A stretch of 64,000 nucleotides of DNA from Candidatus Levybacteria bacterium RIFCSPHIGHO2_01_FULL_40_16 (GTDB lineage Bacteria; Patescibacteriota; Microgenomatia; Levybacterales; UBA12049). Under the pieces are notes generated by a model. That model worked only from the letters and a program-made list of their open reading frames with translations, did no database searches and was not told the DNA's origin. Position numbers and translations under genes: made by a program. The DNA is taken from contig MFNS01000007.1 in NCBI GenBank assembly GCA_001783805.1, positions 1,594-65,593 of the forward strand. The letters are read 5' to 3'. Below, piece by piece: positions 17,696 to 43,583 of the stretch (position 1 is the first letter of the stretch; every line of letters begins with the position of its first letter).

Positions 17696-18238
17696 ATGGC
17701 TAGTGAAATCCATCCAAATAAAGAGTTTAATAAGAACCCTATTGAAATTGCATCTTCTGACGGAGAAATTGTTCTTAGGCAATTTACGCTCCGGGATTCG
17801 GAAGAAATTTTTTCCTTAATCGATAGAAACCGAGAACATTTGTCTCAATTTGGAGATGATACAGCAGATAAATATCCAACCCTACAGTCAGTACGGAAAA
17901 GTATAGAACATCCTAAGAATCCGGAAAGATTACGATTTGCAATCCGGAACAAACAAGGTCAATTTGTAGGAAGCATAAATCTGACACCATATGAGACAGA
18001 TTCAACGCAAGGAGAAATTGGATATTATTTGGGCGCTGAATTTCAAGGAAAAAGATATATGGGAAAAGCAGTTGAGATAATAACAAATTATGGATTTGAT
18101 TTTCTAAATTATAAAACTATTTATGGGGACATTGTCGAAGGAAATACTGCTTCCGTAAACGTTCTTCTTAAAGCCGGCTATCAGGAGACCGGAAAGCACG
18201 GTGAGAAAATCCGCTACTCAAAACAAAGAGGAATGTGA
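17696..18238 (+). CDS. GNAT family N-acetyltransferase (RimJ/RimL-like)
   Basis: IGYYLGAEFQGKRYMGKAVEIITNYGF acetyl-CoA binding block. Confidence 0.75.
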   Translation: MASEIHPNKEFNKNPIEIASSDGEIVLRQFTLRDSEEIFSLIDRNREHLSQFGDDTADKYPTLQSVRKSIEHPKNPERLRFAIRNKQGQFVGSINLTPYETDSTQGEIGYYLGAEFQGKRYMGKAVEIITNYGFDFLNYKTIYGDIVEGNTASVNVLLKAGYQETGKHGEKIRYSKQRGM

Positions 18239-18244
18239 ATCGGA

Positions 18245-18470
18245 GTGAGCGTTGAAACAAGCGCGTTAAAAAATTATTGAATGAGTTGTCAGGGGAATTC
18301 CTCAGCGAGCGAAAGCGAGATTGAGGAAGGGGTGAAATTACCCGACTAACGAATGAAACAATTTTAGCGCGACTTTCACAGCTCAAGAGTTTTTGGTACC
18401 TTTGTCGGCACAAAAGTACATAAAAAAATAAAAATGAGATTCTGAAACTAGTTCAGAATGACAATTTGGA
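18245..18470 (+). ncRNA. structured intergenic repeat / candidate ncRNA, copy 1 (~225 nt)
   Basis: Shares >85% identity with 41862-42085 and a diverged copy at 33510-33695. Helices (cgcg+aaaatt / aatttt+cgcg closing stem; cctca/tgagg; gtac(c)tttg-tcgg-caaaagtac; attctgaa-actag-ttcagaat) show compensatory changes between copies. Confidence 0.55.
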
Positions 18471-18474
18471 AAAA

Positions 18475-18498
18475 GGGGGGTGGCGCCGCCGATCCCCC
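18475..18498 (+). repeat. GC-rich boundary motif, copy C (ggggggtggcgccgccgatccccc)
   Basis: Fused to the 3' end of ncRNA-like copy 1; followed by TATAAT (18542-18547) and the ATG at 18554. Confidence 0.7.
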
Positions 18499-18553
18499 AA
18501 CAAGGCAACCTGATATATTTTGATATACTCCTCCTTTTTGCTATAATTCCACA

Positions 18554-19597
18554 ATGATGAATCCCGAAAACAGAAGTCGCCTTAATCAAATTCCAGCAAG
18601 CGAATCGCTTAGGAGTTGCGAACGACTTAAACCCGGTTATAAATTACTTTTGGCAGGACCAGGATTTCTGGGAGGGTTTGCATTTAAGGAAGTGGGAAGA
18701 ATAAATGAAATTCTTAAGTCAGTAGGAGATTTCGATGAAGCACTAGCGAGAACTTTATTGTATGAATATTTTTCAATTCACAGTCTTTTTTCACGAATGG
18801 TAGGTAAAGAAAATATAGTAGTGATAAAGACTTCAACGATAGAAGTAAAATCTTCTACCAACAACATGATCGCTGCCTTAAAACGAGTGCAATTCCCCGA
18901 TAATTCTGAATTTAAACAAATAGACGCGGATTTCTTAAGTCAAGGCTATCTCAATTGGCCAAGAGACGCATATACACTATTGGACGATAAATTAATGGTG
19001 GATAGTACTGCTTTAAAAATTAATGGTGACAATATTATTAAATCTAGTTTGGGTGAAGGAGGACAAGTTCTTGTTAGGAAAAAAGCTATTCTCGTTACTC
19101 CAGGTATCTGGAAATATAATAAGACTGAAATTAATAGTTTGCAAGGGCAGGGTTACCGAGTTGGATATTTGCCATTTGTAGATGAAACAAAGCAGAAATA
19201 CGATTTTATGGAAACACATATTGACGGCCATTCGACGCTAATAGAGGACCGTGAGGGAAAATTAAATTTAATCGTTGCAGATTCTTACTCCAGGCAAGGA
19301 AATAATACGAGAAAATTTATTAGAAGAGCTGCAGAAACAATTGGGGCTGAAATGATTGAGGTTGATGATAGAAATCTACCGCCCTTAGCTTTTAATGTAC
19401 TTCAATTCGAAGATAATTCGATAGCCATGACAAACTCTAAAGCCAAAGATCTTGAGTTAACCATATATGACTTAGTTGGCAATGACAAAGTCTTCACTAC
19501 GGAGGTTCCATTAATTAATGTACCAAAACTTACTTTAGGAGGAATCCGTTGCCTAACTAATACAATTCCGAATTGGGTTTTGAATAAATATAATTAA
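18554..19597 (+). CDS. hypothetical protein with a guanidino-modifying-enzyme (agmatine/arginine deiminase / amidinotransferase) -like C-terminal Cys motif
   Basis: C-terminal GGIRCLTNTIP resembles the catalytic-cysteine motif GG(I/V)HC(I/L)T of the GME superfamily. The rest is unassigned. Confidence 0.45.
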   Translation: MMNPENRSRLNQIPASESLRSCERLKPGYKLLLAGPGFLGGFAFKEVGRINEILKSVGDFDEALARTLLYEYFSIHSLFSRMVGKENIVVIKTSTIEVKSSTNNMIAALKRVQFPDNSEFKQIDADFLSQGYLNWPRDAYTLLDDKLMVDSTALKINGDNIIKSSLGEGGQVLVRKKAILVTPGIWKYNKTEINSLQGQGYRVGYLPFVDETKQKYDFMETHIDGHSTLIEDREGKLNLIVADSYSRQGNNTRKFIRRAAETIGAEMIEVDDRNLPPLAFNVLQFEDNSIAMTNSKAKDLELTIYDLVGNDKVFTTEVPLINVPKLTLGGIRCLTNTIPNWVLNKYN

Positions 19598-33281: not shown

Positions 33282-33509
33282 AAAGACAATTTAATAATAT
33301 AAATTCAGCAAATAAAAGTCAAGCTCGCGATTATTTTTAAGAATAAGGACTACACCTTTTTGTGTCAAGAGTATGCTGCTATGTAGCAGCGAACTTTCGC
33401 AAACTCTTGCGGACATTTTCAGACGCATTATAAATCCTTAGGTTCAGATATAAACCAGCACCAGGCGTTGACTGGCTTTGGACATAAGGATAACTCTAAA
33501 TAAATAATG

Positions 33510-33695
33510 CTTGCGAGCATTAAACAAAGCGCGTTAAACATTTTTGAGCAAGTTGTCAGGGGGATTCCTCACCCCGATCGAATCGGGATTGAGGAGGGGG
33601 TGCAAATCACCCGACAAAACGAGCCAAAAAATGTAGCGCGACTTTACCGCTCGCAGAGTTTTGGTACTTTTGCGGACAAAAGTAAGTAAAAAAAC
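33510..33695 (+). ncRNA. structured intergenic repeat / candidate ncRNA, copy 3 (diverged, lacks the 3'-most hairpin)
   Basis: Aligns with copies 1 and 2 with compensatory changes: aaaatt/aatttt -> acattt/aaatgt; cctca-...-tgagg retained; the inner loop is replaced by the self-complementary cccgaTCGAAtcggg; ctttg-tcgg-caaag -> cttttg-cgga-caaaag. Confidence 0.5.
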
Positions 33696-36151
33696 TAACT
33701 GTTAATTACTAATTGGAGATTATTAGTGGAATCGACGGAAATGTTAATTTTGTCGCCTCTTTCTATTTCTTCCTTGAGGATTTTTTGAGCCAGAACATCT
33801 TCAATATTATCCTGAATAAACCGCTTGAGAGGACGGGCTCCAAATTGCTCATCAAATCCTTCTTGTGCAATTTTTGCAATTATTTTTTCATCAAAATTAA
33901 CAGTGATGTCTTTTTCCAAAAGTTTTTTAGAAAGGTCGTTAAGCAATAATTTAATAATTTGCATAACCTCTTCTTTTCCCAAGGGCTTAAAAACAATAAT
34001 TCCGTCAAATCTGTTCAGAAGCTCCGGTCTGAATATTTCCTTTTTTTGCAAAAATTCCAACAGCTCTTTCTGAAAAGCTTTATCAATTACCGTTCCTTTA
34101 TTTACCTCCTCACGGATATATTCACTGGCTGCGTTGGAGGTTGCGATAACAATTGTATCTGTAAAAGAAACAATCTTGCCTGTATTGTCGGTCAGTCTTC
34201 CGTCATCCAAAACTTGCAAAAATAAATCAATTATTTTAGAATTGGATTTTTCAAATTCATCCAGTAAAACCAAAGAATAAGGATTTTCGCAAACCGCATC
34301 TGTTAACCCTTTTGAATCCACAACTCCCCCTAAGAAACGCTTCACAGAATCATCGGTTGAATATTCGCTCATATCAAATCTAATCATCTTATCTTCCCCG
34401 CCAAAATAAATGCCGGACAAGGCTTTTGCAGTCGCAGTTTTACCAACACCTGTTGGACCTAAAAATAAGAATGATGTTGGCTTTGTCTTACTACTAAGTC
34501 CTGTTCTTAATCTCCTCAAGGCTTCCGAAACTCCAAAAATAGCATCTTTTTGCCCGATTACATATTTGGAAAGTTCAGTTTCCAGATGAAGCAATAATTC
34601 TTTTTCTTTTTCTTTGGGAGCTCCGACTGCAATCTTGGTTCTGGATTCGACTTTGTTAATTACGTCCTGTTCTTCGATAATTTTTTTGCCCGACATAGCA
34701 ACTGCACTTGCAACATCTTCAAGAAGGGTTACACCTGCACCCGGCATTACGCAGTCCTGTAGATATTTATTGGCAAAATTGCTGGCCACTAGAACCGCTT
34801 TATATAAAATTGTAACCCTGTTGTTTTTTTCAATCTCCATACTTTTCTGTAAGAGCATTTGAAAAGCGACATCTTTATCGGGTTCTTCAAATTTCGCAGT
34901 TTCAAATACGCTTGCTAGGGTAAGTTTTGGTTCAATAAATTTCTTGTAAGATGAGGGGGTGACGTTTGCGATTATTCTAATTACGCCTTTTTGCAAATAC
35001 GGAATTAAAGCGCCCGACAGATTGGTGTTGAATGTTGAAGCGCCCAAAATATTCTCAAAATTCGGAATATAAATAATTATGTTTCCGCTATGAGAAATTT
35101 CCGTGATAATACTTTCCAAACGCTTTTCCAGTTCTCCCTGATTTACTGCTCCGGCCAAAAGAGCATCTACCAAAAGCTCGAAGAATCTTTGATGGCGCAA
35201 ATTTCCTTGCAAGTTCCCGACAAAACTATCATAAGCCAAGGCGTTGACAAAAGAGCCCCGTCCGCTTCCCGGATTTCCCACCAGAAGACAGCTTTTGTTT
35301 CTGCTCAAAGCCTCGACAACCTCCTTATACTCCTTGTCTCTTCCTAAAACCATTGGTTTTTTGTTAACCGCATAAGACGTAATATCTGTCATGTACTTAC
35401 TGGTTTCCAAAGTCCATCCGCTTACCCAACTCTCCCCAATTCCCTCGCCCCAAAAATCTACCCTGAAAGGTTGGGAAACTTGCGGGAAAACGGATTTTGC
35501 CCAAGCGGTAATGTTTTTTAAATCCTCCGTTTTGAGTTTTTTATTAAAAAATAATTTTGTTTTTTCTTCTGTGAGCAATAAATATGAAGCAAAAAAATCC
35601 AATGGATTATTATTATCCACATTTTTAAAAAGTTCTTCTTTGGAAAAATCAATTAATTGGACTTCGGATTTCGCAATTTCTGCTTTTTGCAAAACAAATG
35701 AAATGTCTTGTCTTGAAAGCAGTTCTTTGATAATTTGCTGTGTTGATTTTCCGGAAATATAATCTACCCAGCTTTTCTTAGGTTTAAAAATTGAAAATAT
35801 AGCTAGAATCCACAAAACCGAGAGAAAAAATAAAATCGGGTCTTTATACAATAAAACCGTTAAAACCGGCCAGGAAATAAAACTTATGATAAACAAAAAT
35901 TCTAGCAAAAGTAGTAGTAGCAATAGGATAACATCAGCAACAATAACCCACGTTTTTATAAACATCCCCATTCCAATAGAAAATCCTACCAATCCTTGCC
36001 GATACTCATTCTTCCAAGGCTTGAAATATGTTTTTATGAGAAGAGGCAGAGAAAATAGTTGTAAAAAAGCATTATTTAAGGAAACAAAAAAAATAATTAA
36101 TTTGTTAGGGAAATCTACAAACCAAAATCTTAAAAATCTCAAAGGCAGCAT
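33695..36151 (-). CDS. membrane-anchored ClpB/ClpC-like double-AAA+ ATPase (N-terminal ~130-aa polytopic TM region; first Walker A degenerate)
   Basis: Second NBD FLFLGPTGVGKTATAKAL, sensor/arginine-finger blocks and a C-terminal D2-small domain. The first NBD has GNPGSGRGS. The N-terminus has 3-4 hydrophobic helices. Confidence 0.7.
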   Translation of the reverse strand: MLPLRFLRFWFVDFPNKLIIFFVSLNNAFLQLFSLPLLIKTYFKPWKNEYRQGLVGFSIGMGMFIKTWVIVADVILLLLLLLLEFLFIISFISWPVLTVLLYKDPILFFLSVLWILAIFSIFKPKKSWVDYISGKSTQQIIKELLSRQDISFVLQKAEIAKSEVQLIDFSKEELFKNVDNNNPLDFFASYLLLTEEKTKLFFNKKLKTEDLKNITAWAKSVFPQVSQPFRVDFWGEGIGESWVSGWTLETSKYMTDITSYAVNKKPMVLGRDKEYKEVVEALSRNKSCLLVGNPGSGRGSFVNALAYDSFVGNLQGNLRHQRFFELLVDALLAGAVNQGELEKRLESIITEISHSGNIIIYIPNFENILGASTFNTNLSGALIPYLQKGVIRIIANVTPSSYKKFIEPKLTLASVFETAKFEEPDKDVAFQMLLQKSMEIEKNNRVTILYKAVLVASNFANKYLQDCVMPGAGVTLLEDVASAVAMSGKKIIEEQDVINKVESRTKIAVGAPKEKEKELLLHLETELSKYVIGQKDAIFGVSEALRRLRTGLSSKTKPTSFLFLGPTGVGKTATAKALSGIYFGGEDKMIRFDMSEYSTDDSVKRFLGGVVDSKGLTDAVCENPYSLVLLDEFEKSNSKIIDLFLQVLDDGRLTDNTGKIVSFTDTIVIATSNAASEYIREEVNKGTVIDKAFQKELLEFLQKKEIFRPELLNRFDGIIVFKPLGKEEVMQIIKLLLNDLSKKLLEKDITVNFDEKIIAKIAQEGFDEQFGARPLKRFIQDNIEDVLAQKILKEEIERGDKINISVDSTNNLQLVINS

Positions 36152-41845: not shown

Positions 41846-41861
41846 CTATTGCCCAATTGTG

Positions 41862-42085
41862 AGCACTGAAACAAGCGCGTTAAAAAATTGCGGAGTGAGT
41901 TGTCAGGGGAATTCCTCAGCGAGCGCAAACGAGATTGAGGAAGGGGTGAAATTACCCGACTAACGAATGAGGCAATTTTAGCGCGACTTTCACGCGAACG
42001 AGTTTTTGGTACTTTTGTCGGCACAAAAGTACAAGAAAAAAATAAAAAATTAGATCCTGAAATAAATTCAGGATGACATGGGAAA
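41862..42085 (+). ncRNA. structured intergenic repeat / candidate ncRNA, copy 2
   Basis: Near-identical to 18245-18470, with a compensatory swap in the last hairpin (atcctgaa-ataaa-ttcaggat vs attctgaa-actag-ttcagaat). It ends 20 nt before TAGAAT-6-ATG of metG. Confidence 0.55.
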
Positions 42086-42107
42086 ATTTCTCTGCTAGAA
42101 TGACCTC

Positions 42108-43583
42108 ATGAGCAAGTTTTATATTACAACCGCTATTGATTACGTTAACGACACTATTCATCTGGGGCATGCTTTTCAAAAGATTGCCGCTGATGTTTTG
42201 GCGCGCTATCACAGGATTACGCTTGGAAAAGACAATGTTTTTTTCCTAACCGGAACCGACGAATATGGACAAAAGGCTGAAAAAGCGGCCAAATTGGAAA
42301 ATATTCCTCCAAAAGAATTTGTCAAAAAGATCTCCGATTCCGACCAAAAAGAACAAGACTCTCTGAATATTTCTTACAATCGATTTATTAGAACAACCGA
42401 TCTAGACCACGCAGAAGTTGTTAAAGAAATTTGGAATAGGGTGCAAAAAAACGGTGATGTCTATTCCGGAGAATATCAAGGCTCATATTGCGAAGGTTGC
42501 GAAGCTTATTATGTAAAAGAGGATTTGATCAAGGGAAAATGTCCCGTCCATCCAACGCTGGAAATAAAAATAGTTAAAGAGCAAAATTATTTTTTCAAAT
42601 GGTCCAAATATAAAGATTTTCTGATCGATCACATCAAGAAAAATCCTGATTTTATTTACCCCGCCCACCGCGCGAAGGAAATGCTCGAATTTGCCAAAAA
42701 TATCAAAGACATTCCTATTTCCCGGAGTAATTTTACCTGGGGAATTCCCGTTCCTGCCCGCAATGCTTCGCATAGCGATGCAGGCGAGCCCGAAGATTCG
42801 AAACAGATAATTTATGTTTGGTTTGACGCTTTGGTTAATTATTTAACTGGAGTTGGATTTTTGAAAGACAAGGAATTATTTGCTAAATTTTGGCCGGCTG
42901 ACGTGCATATTTTGGGCAAAGATAATTTACGCTGGCACGCTCTTCTCTGGCCGGCAATGCTCAAATCCGCAGGCATTGAATTACCAAAAGCCATTTTGGT
43001 AAATGGATTTTTGAATATCAACGGACAAAAAATCAGTAAATCTGTTGGGAATGTTATCCGTCCGACAGATTGGGTAAAAAAATACGGAGCGGATGCTGTC
43101 CGCTATTATCTTTTGAGATACACCAATCTCACCGATGATAGCGATATTTCCGAAGAAAAATTATTGCAAGCTTACAACGCCGATTTAGCAAATGGTCTAG
43201 GAAATCTCGTCGCCCGCGTTGCCAAACTCTGCGAAAATAATAATCTCAATTTGACTAAACTTAAACAAGATAGGCCTAATCAAATATTGGAGGAGATAAA
43301 ACCCTTGCTCGAAGGTTTTAAATTAAACGATGCCCTAAGCTATGTATGGGGATCTATAAAAGGTTTAGACCAATATATAAACAGAGAAAGACCTTGGCAA
43401 AAAGAATTAATAGAAGCGAATAAAATCCTTAGTAATATTGTGATTGGCTCTGAGGCGTTAACCTCATTAAATGAAATTGCGGAAGCGCTTAAAATATTTC
43501 TTCCCGAAACTGCGGAGAAAATTGAAGGACAATTCTGCGGACCAAAAATTATTTCCGGAAAACCCCTCTTCCCGAGAATCTAG
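42108..43583 (+). CDS. metG: methionyl-tRNA synthetase (short form) carrying the 36-nt in-frame element
   Basis: HLGH (HIGH) and KISKS (KMSKS) class I motifs; WGIPVP[ARNASHSDAGEPE]DSKQIIYVWFDAL, where the canonical sequence is WG.PVPGD..K.IYVW.DA. Confidence 0.9.
   Translation: MSKFYITTAIDYVNDTIHLGHAFQKIAADVLARYHRITLGKDNVFFLTGTDEYGQKAEKAAKLENIPPKEFVKKISDSDQKEQDSLNISYNRFIRTTDLDHAEVVKEIWNRVQKNGDVYSGEYQGSYCEGCEAYYVKEDLIKGKCPVHPTLEIKIVKEQNYFFKWSKYKDFLIDHIKKNPDFIYPAHRAKEMLEFAKNIKDIPISRSNFTWGIPVPARNASHSDAGEPEDSKQIIYVWFDALVNYLTGVGFLKDKELFAKFWPADVHILGKDNLRWHALLWPAMLKSAGIELPKAILVNGFLNINGQKISKSVGNVIRPTDWVKKYGADAVRYYLLRYTNLTDDSDISEEKLLQAYNADLANGLGNLVARVAKLCENNNLNLTKLKQDRPNQILEEIKPLLEGFKLNDALSYVWGSIKGLDQYINRERPWQKELIEANKILSNIVIGSEALTSLNEIAEALKIFLPETAEKIEGQFCGPKIISGKPLFPRI
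42753..42788 (+). repeat. 36-nt in-frame hairpin element, copy 3, inside metG
   Basis: cctgcccgcaatgcttcgcatagcgatgcaggcgag; 33/36 identical to the alaS copy. Confidence 0.8.

Follow-up and report, generated by a model that had tools for sequence, protein, structure and literature searches.

A candidate multi-copy structured non-coding RNA family in the intergenic DNA of Levybacteria

Three copies in the window and their neighbours

The stretch of DNA analysed here (the window, 64,000 nucleotides (nt) at its full length) belongs to contig MFNS01000007.1 of Candidatus Levybacteria bacterium RIFCSPHIGHO2_01_FULL_40_16, and the window contig is also present in Rifle aquifer assemblies. It contains three copies of a structured intergenic element, a unit of about 190–230 nt whose conserved fold is backed by compensatory base changes; the copies lie 8–15 kb apart, with housekeeping operons (hrcA-grpE-dnaK-dnaJ-clpB and others) between them. 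The first-pass annotation had reported three related stretches at these places, and they are confirmed, all on the + strand, by covariance model and motif count. With filters off, the covariance model gave exactly three full-length matches, at 18244–18397 (copy 1, 156.2 bits), 33512–33665 (copy 3, 137.3 bits) and 41858–42010 (copy 2, 162.5 bits), while nothing outside them exceeded 25 bits and the reverse strands of the copies reached 25 bits at most. For a 20-base core motif the window has three occurrences, where shuffles lead one to expect 0.00.

Copy 1 begins with domain 1 (18245–18386, + strand, a covariance-model match), which consists of the rod P1–P5 and a three-way junction cap (P6 and P7) and is closed by P1, GTGAGC at 18245–18250 pairing with GCTCA at 18381–18385. 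A single-stranded U-tract (18390–18394, within GAG-UUUUU-GG, near-invariant columns of the alignment) leads from domain 1 to the 3′ hairpin P8 at 18395–18419 (GGTACCTTTGT-CGGC-ACAAAAGTAC), which is followed on the same strand by an A-rich linker (18420–18438) and by the optional hairpin P9 with GACA (18439–18463, ATTCTGAA-ACTAG-TTCAGAAT-GACA), common to copy 2.

In copy 2, domain 1 is the covariance-model match at 41859–41999 (+ strand), and P1 takes the tandem G·A form, with GTGAGC at 41859–41864 facing GCGAAC at 41994–41999. Its core pairs GUC (41902–41904) with GAC (41958–41960) and contains the G-run at 41906–41910; P6 is formed by 41914–41918 with 41936–41940, and P7 by 41944–41948 with 41953–41957. 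The U-tract (42003–42007), the P8 hairpin (42008–42032) and the A-rich linker with P9 and GACA (42033–42078) follow, all on the + strand, the last 25 nt (42054–42078) being ATCCTGAA-ATAAA-TTCAGGAT-GACA. The domain 1 sequences of copies 1 and 2 are 90.8% identical, and that of copy 3 is about 78% identical to each.

Copy 3, a member of subfamily B, has its domain 1 at 33512–33655 (+ strand, covariance-model match), with TGCGAGC (33512–33518) and GCTCGCA (33649–33655) as P1, ACATTT/AAATGT as P4 and CCCGATCGAATCGGG as the tip of P6. The U-tract (33659–33662), P8 (33663–33684) and an A-run (33685–33694) come next, there is no P9, and the stop codon of the convergent gene clpB (33695–33697) stands directly 3′ of the copy. 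A promoter-like TGGACA-18-AATAAT (33479–33508, + strand) ends 4 nt before P1, copy 3 being the only copy in the window with such a site immediately upstream of P1. The folding-energy z-scores of the + strand (minimum free energy, MFE) are −4.5 for copy 1 and −5.65 for copy 3.

Copies 1 and 2 begin 6 and 13 nt, respectively, past the stop codon of a co-oriented gene, so that read-through transcription is possible. The promoters noticed earlier next to these two copies are present, but they belong to the downstream genes. The gene 3′ of copy 1, encoding a 347-aa protein found only in Levybacteria, has TTGATA-16-TATAAT-6-ATG at 18520–18556, and metG, 3′ of copy 2, has an extended −10 promoter, TGC-TAGAAT-6-ATG, at 42093–42110, which is kept in L091–L093 (L numbers denote the loci compared). 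In both genes a start codon 6 nt after the −10 box implies putatively leaderless mRNAs. The hexamer ATGACA, 17 nt before TAGAAT, was considered as the −35 box of metG and was dropped, because the extended −10 of metG (TGnTAGAAT) is conserved in species without the element. The methionyl-tRNA synthetase (MetRS) whose gene adjoins copy 2 matches the one from Candidatus Levybacteria bacterium RIFCSPLOWO2_01_FULL_39_24 at 100% identity. The spacer that separates copy 1 from the promoter 3′ of it also contains a GC-rich hairpin, GGGGGGTGGCGCCGCCGATCCCCC, at 18476–18500, which is outside the repeat family and has no U-run after it.

As to open reading frames (ORFs), minus-strand ORFs of 81 and 60 aa had been described within the element; the 81-aa one indeed overlaps copy 1 (18168–18413, minus strand), the 60-aa call of the public annotations over copy 3 is on the + strand, and the ORF overlapping copy 2 is one of 86 aa (41952–42212). 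None of them is conserved between copies 1–3, since strand, frame and extent all differ. A small-protein gene or other coding element was rejected for the family as well, the ORFs being unconserved, and hairpin insertions of 17–20 nt together with length changes in P6 breaking any frame. A public gene call of 637 nt over copy 2 (L003:9333–9969), with a product of 34 residues, is an annotation oddity.

Fold, covariation and strand

The shared fold consists of a long rod (P1–P5) with tandem G·A mismatches, a three-way junction as its cap, a U-tract and the 3′ hairpin P8, with or without P9. P1 pairs G[C/U]GAGC with GCUCGC or GCUCAC, or with GCGAGC/GCGAAC, in which case two central tandem G·A mismatches are formed. 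In P2, xAAA pairs with UUUx′, the x position being G-C, U-A or C-G, and above it an internal loop sets a conserved CAAAG against AC. P3 (CGCGUU with AGCGCG) includes a U·G pair, P4 is an A/U-rich helix with many double changes, and P5 holds another tandem G·A. At the junction, GUC pairs with GAC and is followed by the G-rich strand A-GGGG-R-AUU, GUC-A-GGGGR being invariant; P6 is a hairpin that varies in both sequence and length, and P7 is GGGGUG-loop-YACCC. On the 3′ side of P1, (A)GAG (RAG) is followed by three to five conserved single-stranded U residues and then by GG. P8, found in 55/55 copies, is a hairpin of 9–10 bp; its stem is compensated, and CGGC or CGGU prevails as the tetraloop (YGRY in 44/55 copies). 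The 3′ end is A-rich, and one subfamily, including copies 1 and 2, adds P9 (AUCCUGAA-loop-UUCAGGAU) and GACA, P9 being present in many subfamily-A copies.

The fold can be expanded in modules. For example, three copies (L024:4626–4784, L040:1313–1479 and L048:12988–13148) have an extra hairpin, ACCCCGC..GCGGGGU, between P3 and P4, L031:73–239 has a different extra hairpin at the same point, and L036:1669–1817 has large insertions in P8 and near P2. In addition, the motif (T)TGAAACAA(A)G recurs within the element, in the P2/J2-3 region (window 41867–41875) and in the loop of P9 (42057–42066; CCTGAAACAAGTTCAGG in many copies). It is also seen 25–40 nt upstream of some copies (L026, L034, L084), and it may be a putative binding site.

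The compensatory changes that had been noticed among the three copies of the window are real, and the family alignment locates them. The change from AAAATT/AATTTT to ACATTT/AAATGT lies in P4, the preserved CCTCA/TGAGG belongs to P6, and the inner loop replaced by CCCGATCGAATCGGG in copy 3 is the tip of P6. The change from ATTCTGAA/TTCAGAAT to ATCCTGAA/TTCAGGAT is compensatory too (T-A to C-G), but it separates copies 1 and 2 and does not concern copy 3 as had been stated; in the same way, the alignment from end to end does not hold for copy 3, which aligns only through P8 because it is without P9. That the covariation would persist with more copies is borne out by a count over 60 model-aligned copies, 43 pairs and 500 shuffles: standard pairs occupy 93.9% of cells against 82.2% in the shuffles, both sides have changed in 32 of the 43 pairs (279 cells), and 0/500 shuffles come up to the real alignment by any measure. 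Sliding the 3′ partners by 1–3 columns leaves only 32–43% of cells paired. Since the model alignment is fitted to the structure, the count was redone on a plain MAFFT alignment of 46 copies, in which 90.3% of cells are paired (35–45% in the slid control) and 20 pairs have changed on both sides, again with 0/500 shuffles. Moreover, diverged copies found by the model only re-code the helix closing the junction from GUC/GAC to AUC/GAU, ACC/GGU or AAC/GUU, and in L012:2764–2909 all outer stems are re-coded with the core retained.

A U·G pair had been taken as weakly favouring the + strand; the pair is present, and the preference is strong rather than weak, the + strand being more stable than its complement in 45/46 copies (mean MFE −50.5 against −40.9 kcal/mol). 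The U·G pair of P3 is found in 57/58 scorable copies (46/46 in the MAFFT alignment), and G·U is also seen in P4, in exchange with A-U (17 copies), and in P7, in exchange with G-C (20 copies). Across loci, the reverse strand scores at most 29 bits with the covariance model. Read on the complementary strand, U·G and G·U would turn into A·C mismatches; therefore, it is the + strand that functions, in the form of RNA or, with lower likelihood, of single-stranded DNA.

The element had been matched to no known RNA family at the first reading, and none was found: a search of the whole window with the covariance models of Rfam 15 gave zero matches at gathering score, and eight further loci gave no match on the element. 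The best sub-threshold hits on copy 1 are the flavin mononucleotide (FMN) riboswitch, with 15.8 bits (gathering score 66.2, E = 0.31), and SNORD107, with 18 bits (gathering score 50). The weak FMN match arises because P7 resembles a conserved hairpin of that model. In the main class of copies, P7 (GGGGUGAAAUUACCC) aligns to the conserved GGGUGAAAUUCCC hairpin of the FMN model, a hairpin that forms a T-loop in the riboswitch, but this is the only hairpin that matches, and the second class of copies has another loop (e.g., CGGACAAU). That is to say, the element is not a relative of the FMN riboswitch, and what they share is a motif, not homology. Resemblances to box C/D, K-turn and T-box RNAs were considered without a specific test and dropped, as the motifs do not fit.

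Distribution, genomic context and conservation

Copies were gathered by pattern scans and then by a covariance model, which together gave about 60 distinct copies from metagenome-assembled genomes (MAGs) of Levybacteria and from aquifer (groundwater) or soil metagenomes. In a pattern scan of one genome per species, true copies were found in four Levybacteria MAG loci and in two contigs labelled Proteobacteria. The latter, L007 (CAZMNS010000009.1) and L024 (DATLNW010000043.1), come from MAGs labelled Gammaproteobacteria/Lysobacterales and are probably misbinned contigs of the candidate phyla radiation (CPR), the element being found otherwise only in Levybacteria. A scan of metagenomes of the Joint Genome Institute (JGI) with a different anchor pattern gave 59 loci, all true copies apart from the chance matches L030 and L057, and 54 distinct copies were left after duplicates had been removed; the covariance model then added more diverged copies in the same loci, which were required by neither pattern. 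Phage records and viral contigs held no true copies. The sole viral pattern match, L005:1708–1772 in an IMG/VR contig, has the layout GTCAGGGG-hairpin-GGGGTG-loop-ACCCGAC, but it lies inside a 239-aa ORF, is not recognised by the covariance model and is probably due to chance. A literature search found no description of the element. About 1 kb from one copy there is a 5S rRNA gene (L052:6–122, 75.9 bits).

The 88 proteins flanking the copies are diverse housekeeping proteins: metG and ychF occur four times each, and RNase J, femAB, Fic, histidine kinases and others once or twice. No transposase, reverse transcriptase, Cas or other partner family recurs among them. Neighbour orientation was counted for the 38 copies that have a gene call on either side: convergent genes flank 15 of them, tandem genes 21 (10 with the element in sense, 11 with it antisense) and divergent genes 2, a deficit with a binomial p of 0.02 against an assumed 20% of divergent regions. 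These counts indicate a preference of the element for gene 3′ ends and an orientation that does not depend on its neighbours. When the upstream gene is co-oriented, its stop codon precedes P1 by a median of 51 nt; when the downstream gene is convergent, its stop codon lies beyond a reference point some 20 nt after P8 by a median of about 23 nt, i.e., near the 3′ end of the unit. The downstream gene is co-oriented with the element in 13/41 cases, and orientations are mixed even on single contigs (L047, L012, L079). In three species, a typical copy and a strongly diverged one stand head to head (L012:2610–2909, L079:955–1253, L070:11664–11966) with their 5′ ends 13–55 nt apart, which leaves no room for two external promoters. 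Replication-strand bias could not be read from GC skew, because the skew follows the coding strand. One Levybacteria contig contains an IS200/IS605-type Y1 transposase gene (L087:7157–7810), with no copy of the element nearby.

Same-site copies are far better conserved than their surroundings. The domain 1 of copy 2 is 99.3% identical (143/144) to its counterpart in L032 and 96.4% to that in L042, whereas metG itself is 83–84% identical, its third codon positions 62–64% and the upstream ORF 68–72%. Six more same-site pairs are 75–95% identical, against 48–57% in the flanks, and one further same-site pair has unrelated flanks; at the sites concerned (3′ of ychF, 3′ of RNase J, 5′ of femAB and 5′ of metG) flanking proteins are at 46–89% and third codon positions at 43–68%. 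As shown by this comparison with the flanks, individual copies at conserved sites are under strong purifying selection. The copies on one contig are 52–99% identical (median about 66%) with the fold kept, and most of them are old paralogues. The copy upstream of metG is present in the window, L032, L042 and L040, and that of L040 is a different subfamily variant. At this site, L042:212–357 and the window copy (41858–42010) also have different P6 modules (GCAAACTTGTC against AGCGAGCGCAAACGAGATT), both of which are common elsewhere, and this suggests that P6 modules may be exchanged between paralogues.

At the borders of the unit, no target-site duplication was found, the flanks of copies 1 and 2, L032 and L042 sharing no direct repeat, and there is no terminal inverted repeat either, as the arms of P1 enclose domain 1 only and the unit runs on through P8/P9. 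For copy 1 there is no clean empty-site comparison, because the homologues of the 347-aa protein have different upstream genes. In summary, the pattern, as judged from these comparisons, is that of a gene family which purifying selection maintains and which gains or loses a member now and then, and not that of a young, neutrally decaying MITE family.

Candidate functions and their weighing

The reading that we favour, and to which we would give an even chance, is an uncatalogued, lineage-restricted, multi-copy family of structured ncRNAs of the + strand in Levybacteria (Microgenomates), preferably small RNAs that form ribonucleoproteins (RNPs). The element would act as RNA, with copy 3, whose upstream gene is divergent, relying on a promoter of its own, and copies 1 and 2 transcribed by read-through from the co-oriented upstream gene. 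A trans factor whose gene lies elsewhere could bind to the conserved junction as its platform, the U-tract that separates two stems might be a protein-binding site of the Sm/Hfq type, and P8 would protect the 3′ end, so that each copy may form a small stable RNP. The most far-reaching form of this proposal, i.e., tens of paralogous genes in Levybacteria for a small RNP RNA with an Sm-like U-tract, a junction platform, rRNA-like purifying selection and no counterpart in known bacteria, is regarded as rather unlikely. Among known systems, small RNAs that bind Sm/Hfq proteins and Y RNAs (YrlA) likewise have a single-stranded U-rich tract (here RAG-U3-5-GG) between two stable stems, a modular build and several paralogues, but the resemblance is that of a short motif only, no Rfam Y RNA model matched, and no linkage to an rsr/Ro, hfq or Sm gene came to light, though no search was directed at it. 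Weinberg et al. in 2010 are said to have described orphan multi-copy structured RNA motifs, TD-1 (Treponema denticola), Dictyoglomi-1 and Chloroflexi-1. The element is like them in being dispersed between the genes of one lineage in either orientation, with a fold backed by covariation and no gene association; it differs in being larger (a domain of about 150 nt, a three-way junction and a 3′ hairpin), restricted to CPR and demonstrably selected at the same sites.

Several observations weigh against a small-RNA family. A sigma-70-like site ending at most 12 nt upstream was found in 3/53 copies, no more often than in shuffled flanks (3.5 ± 1.8), although 20 copies have a divergent upstream gene. 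The + strand has no canonical terminator; its U-tract lies 3–4 nt past P1 and was left unflagged by the terminator scan. The Sm/Hfq-site and RNP ideas are drawn from resemblance only, and single-stranded DNA can likewise form G·T and G·A pairs. Some 140 kb of DNA from other Levybacteria (L085–L094) gave one clear and one weak match only. In the syntenic locus that was compared (hrcA-grpE-dnaK-dnaJ...clpB, a small ORF, metG-tatD...), the copy upstream of metG is missing in four Levybacteria (L091–L094, MetRS 68–76% identical), and the copy downstream of clpB is missing in L092 and L094, whose loci cover the end of clpB; individual copies are therefore dispensable. Finally, two mutually exclusive pairings of the CCC strand of the junction both fit the data, so that the junction fold given here is provisional. 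In one option, CCC pairs with the 5′ G-run (GGGGR/YACCC), by which P5 is extended and the junction becomes a rod; it is supported by the covariation of R78 with Y142 (GC 31, AU 24, other 3), and one diverged copy has GGGAG with CUCCC. In the other, CCC pairs with the 3′ G-run as hairpin P7, whose pairs are 94.9% canonical, with U-A replaced by G-C in the second class of copies. A single tertiary R-Y pair above P7 would also fit the junction data.

As for these sites, all three copies with an upstream sigma-70-like site, copy 3 included, have a divergent upstream gene, and one subfamily, and that one only, has a conserved TTGAAG-17-TATTTT block 12–16 nt upstream. The 5′ flank is generally A-rich, with T at −1 in 44/53 copies. 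Together with P1 and the U-run after it, this A-rich flank gives the surroundings of domain 1 the layout of a bidirectional terminator, and on the minus strand of copy 2, P9 with its U-run (42074–42054) was called terminator-like. Canonical intrinsic-terminator-like sites are not enriched in the window between 33000 and 42500 (12 against 9.5 ± 3.6 in shuffles), which suggests that this stretch of the genome may rarely use classical terminators.

It is from these signals that a cis-acting boundary element of transcription units at gene ends could be built, in which domain 1 would be a bidirectional terminator or a 3′-end protector, possibly binding a factor, and P9 with the U-run would terminate minus-strand transcripts. 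Such a role, which we consider somewhat unlikely, would agree with the placement of the copies (15 convergent and 21 tandem, but only 2 divergent of the 38), with stop codons near both ends, with own promoters that are mostly undetectable and with the lack of enrichment of canonical terminators. Yet a terminator needs neither a junction of 140 nt with invariant unpaired bases nor conservation near the level of rRNA, the U-tract lies 3–4 nt from the stem and was missed by the scan, and a fold so specific for the + strand fits poorly with 10 sense and 11 antisense copies in tandem regions. Moreover, about one copy per 20 kb (3 in 64 kb) cannot be a general terminator, and syntenic genomes manage without the element at the same sites. 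It is the same coming and going of copies at the orthologous metG and clpB sites, added to their being numerous, dispersed, intergenic and in both orientations, to the head-to-head pairs and to the other subfamily variant at the metG site of L040, that would suit a non-autonomous mobile element, either a MITE or a single-strand derivative of the IS200/IS605 type, with the folded + strand as the substrate of a transposase encoded elsewhere. Strand-specific folding without target-site duplications is a trait of single-strand DNA transposons, and a Y1 transposase gene is present in one Levybacteria locus (L087). However, no model match lies near that gene, no transposase recurs among the 88 neighbours, and the extra DNA relative to an empty site does not end at the conserved borders of the element. 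In L092, the stop codon of the small ORF directly abuts the extended −10 box of metG (TGCTAGAAT), and in the window 13 nt, the element and another 13 nt lie between them, so that the added DNA reaches 13 nt past each conserved end; in L091, the 273-nt spacer upstream of metG holds no decayed remnant. Neutral decay is absent as well: same-site copies are 75–99% identical where synonymous sites are saturated, the sites 3′ of ychF, 3′ of RNase J and 5′ of metG and femAB are kept across species in which the flanking proteins have only 46–82% identity, and the mostly old copies of one contig keep their fold by compensation, the opposite of a young homogeneous MITE family. Without transposase, target-site duplication or conserved ORF, a MITE is unlikely, and the mobile explanation as a whole is held to be improbable; of the two alternatives left by the first-pass annotation, ncRNA or MITE, it is the former that is favoured. 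Correia, ERIC, BOX/RUP and REPIN elements are also patchy, intergenic and found at gene 3′ ends, with a long imperfect hairpin and terminator- or promoter-like pieces, whereas the present element has no border repeats of either kind, diverged but compensated copies on a contig, a core with invariant unpaired bases and a three-way junction, and same-site copies conserved above flanking synonymous sites. The omega-RNAs of HEARO/IscB and TnpB are multi-copy and strongly structured too, with about 150–300 nt and presence/absence between relatives, but they are joined to an iscB/tnpB ORF and have a guide segment at one end; no such ORF is found among the 88 neighbours, a variable single-stranded guide is not evident, and no Rfam HEARO or IS605-orfB model matched the element. 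An IS200/IS605 element or a TnpB or IscB omega-RNA was rejected on the same ground, no tnpA/tnpB/iscB family occurring among the flanking proteins, and type I toxin-antitoxin systems, CRISPR leaders, retrons and diversity-generating retroelements were dropped without a specific test, there being no partner genes or arrays.

The remaining explanations concern the DNA strand itself and the downstream gene. A strand-specific fold that goes with undetectable own promoters in most copies, and whose G·T and tandem G·A pairs DNA can also accommodate, could belong to a site that folds as single-stranded DNA (single-strand initiation, primosome or recombination) and is never needed as RNA, and the TAGCG(C/T)G motif of the element may resemble the CS-6 box of plasmid single-strand origins. 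A replication-linked role predicts otherwise than an orientation that is unrelated to neighbouring genes and mixed on single contigs, though, and the element sits in housekeeping regions of the chromosome, not in plasmids or phages, and forms no integron-like array. We therefore hold this explanation to be distinctly improbable. An integron attC array was rejected separately, given the spacing of the window copies, the operons between them and the mixed orientations elsewhere. A cis-regulatory leader resembling a riboswitch or T-box and controlling a downstream gene such as metG is brought to mind by copy 2 and its same-site counterparts directly upstream of metG and by other copies that precede femAB-family genes; the two exclusive CCC pairings could act as a switch, and P7 has its weak likeness to the FMN-model hairpin. 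But only 13 of the 41 downstream genes are co-oriented, the neighbours are diverse, metG has its own extended −10 promoter 3′ of the element, also in syntenic species without it, and there is neither an expression platform nor an Rfam riboswitch or T-box match. The leader is thus extremely improbable, and it is already largely refuted by the orientation statistics.

To our knowledge, almost no ncRNAs have been described in CPR bacteria, whose genomes are very small, beyond the universal ones. The present family combines large size, an intricate fold and strong conservation, individual copies having changed at about 1 in 144 positions where flanking third codon positions are about 62% identical, and it occupies a measurable share of the intergenic DNA in some Levybacteria. 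It is an orphan RNA class that is immediately testable. Should it prove instead to mark boundaries or to terminate transcription, it would reveal the way in which transcription units are set apart in a genome stretch without enrichment of canonical terminators; if the many-paralogue RNP RNA is true, it would be a lineage-specific component of RNA metabolism or translation in organisms with reduced genomes.

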